A stretch of DNA of 5,841 nt from the IMG/VR virus record IMGVR_UViG_3300029794_000110; one strand, written 5' to 3'. Below are positions 441 through 5,841 of this stretch, in pieces. The position numbers and the translations under genes are program-made. The notes beneath the pieces are model-generated. The model saw only the letters and a list, made by a program, of their open reading frames with translations. It did not search any database and was not told the origin of the DNA. The number at the start of each line of letters is the position of its first letter. The first letter of the stretch is position 1. Origin of the DNA: a virus.

Positions 441-490
441 GGTGTCACCTAGCCCAGTACCTATCAAGTAAGTACTGGGCTTTATTATTC
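441..490 (+). terminator. Perfect 10-bp stem (451-460 AGCCCAGTAC / 472-481 GTACTGGGCT) with an 11-nt loop, followed by the T-rich run TTTATTATT. Likely an intrinsic terminator after VP4, or a structured ssDNA element.
   Basis: The reverse-complement match of the two arms was read directly. It sits 24 nt after the VP4 stop and is followed by a U-rich tract. Confidence 0.6.
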
Positions 491-493
491 TAA

Positions 494-544
494 TCGCGCA
501 CACACGTACGCGCGAAAACTACACGCGCACGCGTGCGCACGTAT
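494..544. repeat. Two perfectly alternating pyrimidine-purine GC-rich tracts (495-514, 20 nt; 521-544, 24 nt) separated by AAAACT. Tract 1 is an inverted repeat (TCGCGC 494-499 / GCGCGA 510-515). Tract 2 contains the 14-bp perfect palindrome GCGCACGCGTGCGC (525-538).
   Basis: Py/Pu alternation and the palindromes were read directly. The tracts are dense in CGCG, GCGC, ACGCGT, TGCGCA and GTAC motifs and sit in an otherwise AT-rich intergenic region. Confidence 0.8.
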
Positions 545-580
545 TATAATATAACTTGTTGTAGTCGTAGTAGTAGAGTA

Positions 581-761
581 TGTGGAAAAGTTGAAAACTA
601 CTATTTTATAACGATAGAGCGTAAAAAACAACTGAAAAACGTTGTTGAAAACTTTGTTGAAAACTTGTTGAATTGTTGAAACACTCTGTTGTGCTAAAGT
701 TTAACAATGTTGAAATGTTGAAAACTATGTGGAAAATGTTGAAAACTATGCTGAAAAAGCC
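581..761 (+). repeat. Iteron-like array of at least 10 direct copies of the core (T)TGTTGAAA(A)C, including variants GTTGAAAAC, CTGAAAAAC and TGTGGAAAA, spaced about 10-12 bp apart. A 21-23 nt unit TGTGGAAAA(T)GTTGAAAACTA occurs at both ends (581-601 and 728-750).
   Basis: Copies at 588-598, 631-640, 642-652, 654-664, 665-672, 673-682, 708-715, 716-725, 737-746 and 751-759. The A4-5 tracts recur at roughly helical periodicity. Confidence 0.8.
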
Positions 762-5129: not shown

Positions 5130-5841
5130 GTTGTTACAAGCCATTAATAAGGCTGTACAACCCGGACGATAGAGAACAGAGCGGGCGGGTATATTCACTC
5201 GCCCGCTTTTCTCAGCTAAGCGGGAAACAGCTAAAATATGAAGATTTGATGTACAATCCAAAAATCATGTTAATTCCATGCGGGCAGTGTATTGGATGCA
5301 GAATCCGACAGCGAGAAGATTGGACGACAAGAATAGAATTAGAAGCGCGAGACTATCCGAAGGAAGAAGTTTGGTTTATAACACTGACATATGACGATGA
5401 ACATGTGCCGGGCATGATAGTAAAAACAGGGGAAATCATGCGAAAAGTGCAATACACGTGGAAGCCGGGAGAGAAGCTCCCAGACAGCGTACAAATTCTG
5501 CTATATGAAGATATTCAAAAGTTCTTAAAACGCCTCAGAAAGGCTTACAGGGGCAAATTACGCTACTTTGTGGCCGGTGAATACGGAGAGAAGACAGCGA
5601 GACCACATTATCACATGATTCTATACGGCTGGAAACCAAAAGACCTAGAAAATCTGTACAAAATCCATCACAACGGATACTATACCAGTAAATGTTTAGA
5701 AGACCTATGGGGCATGGGTCAGATCCAGATCGCGCAAGCAGTTCCAGAAACCTATAGATATGTTGCAGGATATGTAACAAAAAAAATGTACGAGATAGAC
5801 GGAAAGAAAGCCAATGCGTACTACGAATTGGGACAAACGAA
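5126..5841 (+). CDS. VP4: Replication initiator protein VP4, N-terminal portion. It runs off the window end and continues at 2..427 via the circular junction. Total 339 aa.
   Basis: AGGAGG lies 9 nt upstream of ATG 5126. Zinc-finger-like PCGQCIGCRIRQ, RCR motif I FITLTYDDEH, HUH motif II RPHYHMILYGW and tyrosine motif III YRYVAGYVTKK. No stop occurs before the window end. Confidence 0.93.
   Translation, partial: MSCYKPLIRLYNPDDREQSGRVYSLARFSQLSGKQLKYEDLMYNPKIMLIPCGQCIGCRIRQREDWTTRIELEARDYPKEEVWFITLTYDDEHVPGMIVKTGEIMRKVQYTWKPGEKLPDSVQILLYEDIQKFLKRLRKAYRGKLRYFVAGEYGEKTARPHYHMILYGWKPKDLENLYKIHHNGYYTSKCLEDLWGMGQIQIAQAVPETYRYVAGYVTKKMYEIDGKKANAYYELGQT
5719..5841. repeat. Terminal redundancy: an exact 123-bp duplicate of 1..123. 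This is an assembly artefact of a circular genome; the unit length is 5718 bp.
   Basis: Base-by-base identity of 1..123 and 5719..5841. The VP4 reading frame is continuous across the junction because 5718 is divisible by 3. Confidence 0.95.

Follow-up and report, generated by a model that had tools for sequence, protein, structure and literature searches.

The window analysed here, a stretch of 5,841 nucleotides, holds the circular genome of a gokushovirus-like microvirus with a length of 5,718 nt and a 123-nt terminal overlap. Every gene is encoded on the plus strand. Besides Rep (VP4), these are the genes for an M15 peptidase, VP5, the VP3 scaffold, VP1 and VP2. The small ORFs, which were compared with Pfam and PHROGs, made up the standard gokushovirus gene set plus the M15 peptidase, and no Z-DNA-binding domain was found among them. 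The locus comprises the following features:

5126 across the junction to 427, plus strand: Rep (VP4) gene, with its stop codon at 425-427
428-923: non-coding region, starting after the Rep (VP4) stop and containing the tracts
495-514: tract 1, 20 nt, CGCGCACACACGTACGCGCG, a maximal uninterrupted alternating purine/pyrimidine run
520-544: tract 2, 25 nt, TACACGCGCACGCGTGCGCACGTAT, a maximal uninterrupted alternating purine/pyrimidine run
525-538: 14-nt palindrome, GCGCACGCGTGCGC
870-898: promoter of the consensus form TTGACA-17-TATAAT, the only strong one found

The original prediction had described two uninterrupted alternating tracts in the intergenic region. Both are real, and the third-longest run of this kind in the genome has 13 nt. 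The length of 20 nt given for the first run was correct, whereas the second run comprises 25 and not 24 nt, and the string that had been quoted was 22 nt long. When genomes were simulated with a first-order Markov model, a run of at least 20 nt occurred in 8 of 1,000, and two adjacent long runs were far rarer by chance than one. The tract region contains 12 CpG in 51 nt, compared with 56 per kb genome-wide. It had been proposed that restriction-type sites are purged elsewhere in this genome. This was not observed, since the ratio of observed to expected sites outside the tract was 0.97 for GCGC, 0.64 for CGCG and 1.07 for CpG. The segment 522-541 is the most stable 20-bp duplex of the genome, and the tracts abut the window 541-560, the fifth least stable of all 20-bp windows genome-wide. 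The location in a replication-control region was borne out. A switch next to the promoter, as had been suggested, is doubtful because the sole strong promoter lies about 330 bp away.

No local single-strand fold of the plus strand is more stable than that of the GC-rich segment 770-850 (-17 to -19 kcal/mol), which lies just upstream of this promoter and has GC-rich counterparts in relatives. Second in stability is a 12-bp perfect hairpin (GAGCGGGCGGGT...) at 5156-5225 in the 5' part of the Rep gene, which is overlapped by a weak Rfam match to Termite-leu (E = 0.053).

The paired tracts are conserved in related microviruses

The non-coding region matched 57 microvirus records in GenBank, which came from the guts of humans, pigs, monkeys and other hosts. 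In 13 of the 14 GenBank records that were fetched, the paired tracts were found at the same place, and most of 80 IMG/VR relatives with a Rep at least 83% identical carried them as well. Conservation in related microviruses, on which the original prediction had been made to depend, was therefore found in most of the relatives examined. Within the clade of the window, 97 of 109 genomes have the paired tracts. They were still present in genomes with a Rep identity of 44-55% and absent at 35-37%. Since the tracts are missing from a few clade members (L014, L053 and L093), the element must be dispensable or replaceable; it is strongly conserved yet not indispensable.

Each tract of the relatives is about 20-26 nt long, and the two are split by 0-6 nt that are mostly A. 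Overall, the tract length ranged from 16 to 48 nt across the relatives. More than 60 distinct versions were collected, which differed by changes of CG to CA/TG and in length. About 64% of the steps are CG, 30% are CA/TG and 6% are TA. In all of the roughly 66 distinct versions the alternation was unbroken, and this extends across deep divergence. When pairs of genomes were compared, tracts of equal length differed at 0.06-0.135 per site and exclusively by transitions, whereas the 4-fold sites of Rep in the same pairs differed at 0.26-0.42 per site with one third transversions. The tracts thus evolve 3-4 times more slowly than the Rep 4-fold sites. A comparison of transitions and transversions in tracts and flanks was discarded as circular, since the tracts are defined as unbroken runs and the flanks had been aligned ungapped. 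BLAST match ends at the tract edges were rejected as a sign of recombination because low-complexity filtering hides the tracts from the search.

No description of these tracts was found in the literature searched, the coverage of which was incomplete. Alternating CG/TG tracts of up to 91 nt were also seen in non-coding parts of unrelated larger phage contigs (L196 6960-7380, L276 5630-5800 and L207 5940-6040). They lie there beside short direct repeats, which are of the TTGAAAA type in L196, and this suggests a recurring origin-like architecture of these regions.

The two tracts are the arms of one hairpin

According to the original prediction, each tract folds into a hairpin of its own on the coding strand, the first by a 6-bp stem and the second by the 14-bp palindrome. 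We found that both tracts belong to one and the same GC-rich hairpin, with a stem of about 20 bp in which each tract provides one arm. The conserved structure is very probably the hairpin of the minus strand, antisense to all genes. It is composed as follows:

495-514, minus strand: 3' arm of the hairpin, pairing with 522-541
515-521: loop (plus strand AAAACTA, minus strand TAGTTTT), earlier taken as a spacer
522-541, minus strand: 5' arm of the hairpin, the core of tract 2

The minus strand from 550 to 490 folded into a single 20-bp helix with -20.3 kcal/mol (z = -3.19 versus shuffles), whereas the plus strand of the tract region reached -13.2 kcal/mol (z = -0.55) and was without a comparable helix. 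For 64 distinct versions, shuffles that preserve the alternation gave a mean z of -1.36 for the minus strand with DNA parameters and of -1.77 with RNA parameters. The corresponding values of the plus strand were -0.10 and -0.48. An unbroken minus-strand helix of 18-32 bp was present in 63 of the 64 versions, and its pairs were 72% G-C, 20% G.T and 8% A-T. The loop of the relatives, 0-6 nt between the runs, is rich in A on the plus and in T on the minus strand.

Hairpins of the plus strand were rejected as the selected structure, because their mean z was 0.01 against alternation-keeping shuffles and only 3 of 58 fell below -1.64. Since the plus-strand folds show no excess stability over shuffles, the palindromes noticed earlier are what any alternating CG-rich sequence gives. 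Neither the 14-bp palindrome nor the 6-bp stem, which in run 1 requires the flanking T494 and A515, was kept across the versions.

The facing positions of the two arms were then compared in a register picked by the Watson-Crick count alone. This choice favours neither strand and replaces an earlier scoring that was unable to separate the registers. Watson-Crick pairs were found at 1,059 facing positions, compared with 939 +/- 9 in the shuffle null. Mismatches with A.C on the plus strand, which are G.T on the minus strand, occurred at 262 positions (null about 290), whereas G.T on the plus strand, which is A.C on the minus strand, occurred at only 20 positions, where the null was 69 +/- 5. The observed ratio of the two mismatch classes is 13:1. 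The mutation bias at the Rep 4-fold sites, where G>A on the plus strand is 2.2 times C>T, predicts a ratio of about 2.2:1.

For 36 minus-strand versions, RNAalifold returned a 20-bp consensus helix with -42.2 kcal/mol, and compensatory double changes were observed in 8 of the 20 consensus pairs. When the same sequences were read as the plus strand, the energy was -4.7 kcal/mol and no long helix appeared. With the register shifted by 2 columns, alternation alone still gave 88-94% pairing, whereas 99.7% of the 714 aligned pair positions were paired in the unshifted register. None of 500 shuffles matched the 99.7%, nor did any match the number of double changes; the versions are related and not independent, so these shuffle statistics overstate the significance. 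The pairing pattern, with its mismatch asymmetry and its consensus helix, shows that the selected form is a single minus-polarity strand in which G.T pairs are tolerated.

An origin-like element lies beside the hairpin

We know of no gokushovirus replication origin that has been defined experimentally, and the literature searched, again with incomplete coverage, contained no description of one. A putative Rep origin is located next to the GC hairpin:

441-481, minus strand: putative Rep origin, consisting of a hairpin (451-460/472-481, loop 461-471) plus GGTGTCACC at 441-449
Minus-strand reading of the origin-like element: AGCCCAGTAC-TTACTTGATAG-GTACTGGGCT-A-GGTGACACC
553-558, plus strand: second phiX-like motif, AACTTG

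The origin-like hairpin 441-481 folded with z = -5.87, and it lies 3' of the GC helix on the minus strand, at a distance of 13 nt. Its loop and flank, TTACTTGATAGG ... TAGGTGACACC, resemble the viral-strand origin of phiX174, and a phiX-like nick (ACTTG|ATA) would fall between 466 and 465 of the minus strand. In the clade of the window the origin stem shows compensatory transversions, for example from CCCAGTACC to CCAAGTACC. Individual stem variants were used for this, as a column test of the stem was dropped when the registers were found to differ.

The element of about 43 nt is approximately 90% identical in microviruses of Ciona, Apis and blackfly (L299 1362-1405, L300 1504-1544 and L301 2364-2405), although their Rep is only 28-33% identical. 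In these genomes it is placed the opposite way round relative to the genes, and the coding strand reads stem-TTACTTGATA-stem-TAGGTGACACC. In the clade of the window, the phiX-like reading was present on the Rep-coding strand in 0 of 101 loci and was found on the minus strand instead. A scan of viral contigs showed the origin-like element to be confined to contigs of microvirus size. It was not found in phiMH2K and Chp2 by a search for the motifs ACTTGATA / TATCAAGT. The genomes that carry it fall into two classes:

Class 1: 56 genomes of about 4.4 kb; phiX-like reading on the coding strand, AT skew +0.03; paired tracts in 0
Class 2, the clade of the window: 109 genomes of about 5.7 kb; reading on the non-coding strand, AT skew -0.34; paired tracts in 97

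GC-rich hairpins 5' of the origin hairpin are present in class 1 genomes, too, but these are non-alternating. Among the genomes carrying the origin-like element, the AT skew tracks its orientation. The coding strand of the window has an extreme excess of A, with an AT skew of +0.33, and at the Rep 4-fold sites of L015-L094 it has 48-52% A versus 12-14% T. At these sites C>T on the minus strand, which is G>A on the coding strand, is the fastest transition. Because the minus strand carries the origin-like element, is T-rich and has C>T as its fastest transition, it is the probable candidate for the strand that is nicked, displaced and single-stranded.

In the 8.8-kb contig L061 (4060-4700), the sequence past the origin hairpin is unrelated and has reverse-strand ORFs. 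Perhaps this contig was assembled chimerically; it could also represent a larger element with a microvirus Rep.

A putative DnaA-dependent block follows the tracts

On the other side of the GC hairpin, the non-coding region continues with these features:

542-589, plus strand: putative oriC-like unwinding module of AT-rich stretch, trios, spacer and DnaA-box complement
542-554, plus strand: AT-rich stretch
562-576, plus strand: DnaA-trio-like TAG TCG TAG TAG TAG
581-589: TGTGGAAAA, complement of the DnaA box TTTTCCACA, separated from the trios by a 4-nt spacer
581-757, plus strand: about ten direct repeats of TGTTGAAAA(C) or TGTGGAAAA, the 'iterons' of the original prediction

Published definitions of the oriC basal unwinding system call for a DnaA box in which no more than 2 positions deviate, a spacer of 0-16 bp, three or more NAN trios (consensus 3'-GAT-5') and an AT-rich element next to them (PMC8287927, PMC7561715). 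Judged by its sequence, the segment 542-589 appears to possess all of these parts, and their orientation was checked against the oriC of E. coli. Compared with the complement of TTATCCACA, the TGTGGAAAA at 581-589 deviates at 1 position. The block TATTATAATATAACTTGTTG-TAG TCG TAG TAG TAG-AGTA-TGTGGAAAA is conserved in relatives, and the region 542-589 is about 80% identical even in L137, a genome with a Rep of 37% identity. Direct repeats do exist, but they resemble DnaA boxes plus DnaA-trios instead of iterons, and the repeats at 581-757 may be degenerate DnaA boxes rather than iterons for Rep. A search of plasmids with the repeat block gave nothing useful.

In several relatives (L037 2177-2400, L053 2215-2420, L077 and L084) the block of trios, box and repeats is inverted relative to Rep, and the orientation of the GC hairpin and the origin hairpin is unchanged. 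Because it holds its orientation when the block inverts, the GC hairpin goes with the origin strand and not with the DnaA block. The distance from the GC hairpin to the AT-rich element varied from 6 to more than 100 nt among the relatives. In L038, L041, L043 and similar genomes, the two are separated by an inserted inverted repeat of about 40 nt (gctcttaggcgctattgttcgcaagctcacaagcgccg).

Bacterial genomes were also searched for a host or prophage with ACTTGTTGTAGNNGTAGTAG. Of the 74 matches 73 were chance matches, and no integration site or host was obtained. The remaining match was a free microvirus contig that had been binned with a Bacteroides genome. A dif/XerCD attachment site is without support, since no integration site was found in the bacterial genomes.

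Discussion

Rolling-circle plasmids have their single-strand origins on the displaced strand, a short distance upstream of the point where it is nicked. We propose, with a rough probability of 0.45, that the GC hairpin is a single-stranded-DNA replication signal on the strand nicked by Rep, in the position of a complementary-strand origin. Rep would nick the minus strand in the loop of the origin hairpin (ACTTG|ATA, followed by TAGGTGACACC), and rolling-circle synthesis would displace this strand. The GC hairpin would be among the last elements to become single-stranded and could then serve the displaced or packaged DNA as a cis-acting signal. Its likeliest role would be that of a start site for the complementary strand, a single-strand origin, since the hairpin would stay free of SSB and be recognised by a host priming enzyme. 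We infer the nick site in the loop, the displacement of the minus strand and the priming function. Complementary-strand priming had been among the roles considered in the original prediction, and it stays the best guess for the tracts.

Several observations speak against a single-strand origin. The second phiX-like motif (AACTTG, 553-558) is located on the plus strand, and the tracts are missing in L014, L053 and L093. A hairpin alone needs no strict alternation, yet the alternation is never lost. No known single-strand-origin motif was identified; when the region 490-550 was read for the RS_B and CS-6 (TAGCGT) motifs of ssoA, none was evident.

A wider proposal, which we regard as tentative, concerns the whole clade (109 genomes sampled). 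Its Rep origin may be antisense to all genes, so that these viruses would displace and package the non-coding strand and would represent 'negative-sense' Microviridae, with the GC hairpin as the complementary-strand origin on the virion DNA. To our knowledge, all characterised Microviridae have been described as positive-sense.

The strict alternation leads to a different reading, in which the tracts act as Z-DNA or as a supercoil-sensitive switch in the double-stranded replicative form. Each tract would flip to the left-handed form and absorb about 4.4 turns, and this would modulate origin opening or transcription. The original assignment to a Z-DNA-forming sequence class holds, since both runs are alternating tracts of at least about 12 bp in which CG and CA/TG steps dominate. 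In a two-state model of the 5,718-bp circle, the predicted critical sigma of the tracts was -0.038 and -0.041, and that of all other segments was -0.049 or beyond, which makes the tracts the two best predicted Z-formers of the genome. A sigma near -0.04 can be reached in purified supercoiled DNA. The alternation is intact in all the versions, the tracts differ by transitions exclusively and at rates below those of the Rep 4-fold sites, the nearby origin stem tolerates transversion pairs, and one of the least stable duplex windows directly adjoins the tracts. However, Z-DNA has no strand polarity and leaves the 13:1 asymmetry of the mismatches unexplained, as well as the excess of Watson-Crick complementarity, the conserved loop and the equal length of the arms. 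The unconstrained supercoiling usually present in vivo at best just reaches the predicted threshold, and the distance to the AT-rich element is variable. We therefore consider Z-DNA unlikely as the primary function and rank it as a secondary property or a rival, since it cannot by itself explain the strand asymmetry. The alternation is in part kept because the path from G-C over G.T to A-T admits only transitions. It also lends Z-DNA potential to the duplex and slippage tolerance to the pairing of the hairpin, which may be under secondary selection. It is plausible as well that the alternation is selected directly, either for Z-DNA formation in the replicative form or for pairing that tolerates slippage.

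The selected strand could also be RNA. A hairpin of minus polarity in an antisense RNA or in the RNA primer of the complementary strand might serve as a stabiliser, a terminator or a primer-release signal. The 20% of G.U-type pairs and the covariation from GC over GU to AU are a classic RNA signature, and the z against shuffles is stronger with RNA than with DNA parameters (-1.77 and -1.36). We nevertheless regard this as quite unlikely. In the window no leftward promoter is found upstream, and the right flank differs between lineages. No T/U run of an intrinsic terminator follows the hairpin on the minus strand (plus-strand flank ATTATAAT, minus-strand flank ATTAGAATAATAAAG), and a terminator scan flagged only a 6-bp sub-hairpin with the hairpin loop as its tail. 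Among Rfam matches with E <= 1, none overlapped the helix 495-541; the nearest one was a weak match to mir-318 at 435-497 (E = 0.87), far under the gathering score.

Next comes a boundary in the duplex, where the tracts would act as a GC clamp, cruciform or fork barrier and delimit the DnaA-dependent unwinding element and the Rep origin. This would be in line with the direct neighbourhood of the most stable 20-bp segment (522-541) and the fifth least stable one (541-560), and with an adjacent block that looks like an oriC unwinding module. A clamp, however, needs neither an inverted repeat nor alternation nor strand asymmetry, and the adjacency to the AT-rich element is lost where the block is inverted or where 40-100 nt are inserted. 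We think that such a boundary is improbable.

A site for a sequence-specific protein, for example a Chi-like signal that attenuates an exonuclease, is very unlikely. The motif CACGCGC, which we take to be the reverse complement of the Lactococcus Chi GCGCGTG, was present in 63 of 66 versions, and CGCGCACG and CGCACGCG were present in 60-61 of 66, compared with 43 in the null. However, a null that preserves the alternation already gave 54 of 66 for CACGCGC, shared ancestry can produce an enrichment, and the positions and spacing of the motifs vary. The match also depends on the Chi of Lactococcus, which may not be that of the host. The Chi-like motif was rejected, as it is indistinguishable from composition and shared ancestry. 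A simple-sequence expansion without function, maintained by slippage, would agree with tract lengths of 16 to 48 nt, the few genomes without tracts and the similar tracts in other phage contigs, but it is hardly credible in view of a position, two-arm symmetry and loop that are kept down to 44% Rep identity, an evolution 3-4 times slower than that of the 4-fold sites and the compensatory changes.

The proposed single-strand signal can be compared with known systems. Like the ssoA, ssoT, ssoU and ssoW origins of rolling-circle plasmids, the element is non-coding, has strong intrastrand pairing and is specific for one strand and one orientation, which in the plasmids refers to function and here to the conserved structure. 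A further likeness would be its place just upstream of the nick on the displaced strand, both of which are putative in our case. Unlike the plasmid origins with their branched fold of 150-300 nt, it is a single 20-bp helix, strictly alternating and CG-rich, and unlike ssoA it shows no RS_B or CS-6 motif. By their description, the n' primosome hairpin of phiX174, which is recognised by PriA, and the DnaG hairpins of the G4 oric are similar, since they are intergenic, reside on the viral single strand of a microvirus and start the complementary strand. The site of phiX174 and G4 is found in the F-G intergenic region, whereas the hairpin described here is antisense to the genes and adjoins the Rep origin. 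The neighbouring element, TTACTTGATAGG...CTAGGTGACACC on the minus strand, is like the annotated phiX174 origin CAACTTG|ATATTAATAACACTATAGACCAC in its 8-nt core ACTTGATA and a similar 3' 'key' region. The phiX174 origin is inside gene A on the coding strand, whereas the nick motif in the window is in a hairpin loop of non-coding DNA on the non-coding strand.

The tracts share with the Z-forming d(CG)n and d(CA)n inserts of plasmids a strict purine/pyrimidine alternation with CG and CA steps over 20-25 bp. Unlike these inserts, they form an inverted repeat with strand-specific wobble pairing, which is needless for Z-DNA. The block at 542-589 has the same parts, order and relative strands as the basal unwinding system of bacterial oriC. 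Here, however, it is in a phage genome, the DnaA box is a predicted one, and the likeness concerns the neighbouring block and not the tracts. Taken together, the element can best be classed with the single-strand hairpins that are known to lie near the origins of microviruses and rolling-circle plasmids, as a variant so far unassigned to a named sso family.

Gokushoviruses are the dominant single-stranded DNA phages of animal guts. For one large clade, our results provide a map with a putative phiX-like nick hairpin, a strand-specific GC hairpin and a predicted oriC-like module of DnaA box and DnaA-trios. As the pairing of the hairpin and the strict Z-type alternation are kept together, the element is a good substrate for studying a non-B duplex role in a bacterial virus. 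If the origin is indeed on the antisense strand, the clade would be an exception to the positive-sense rule for the Microviridae, and strand-specific virome methods, models of the mutation spectrum, and the annotation and orientation of these genomes would be affected.
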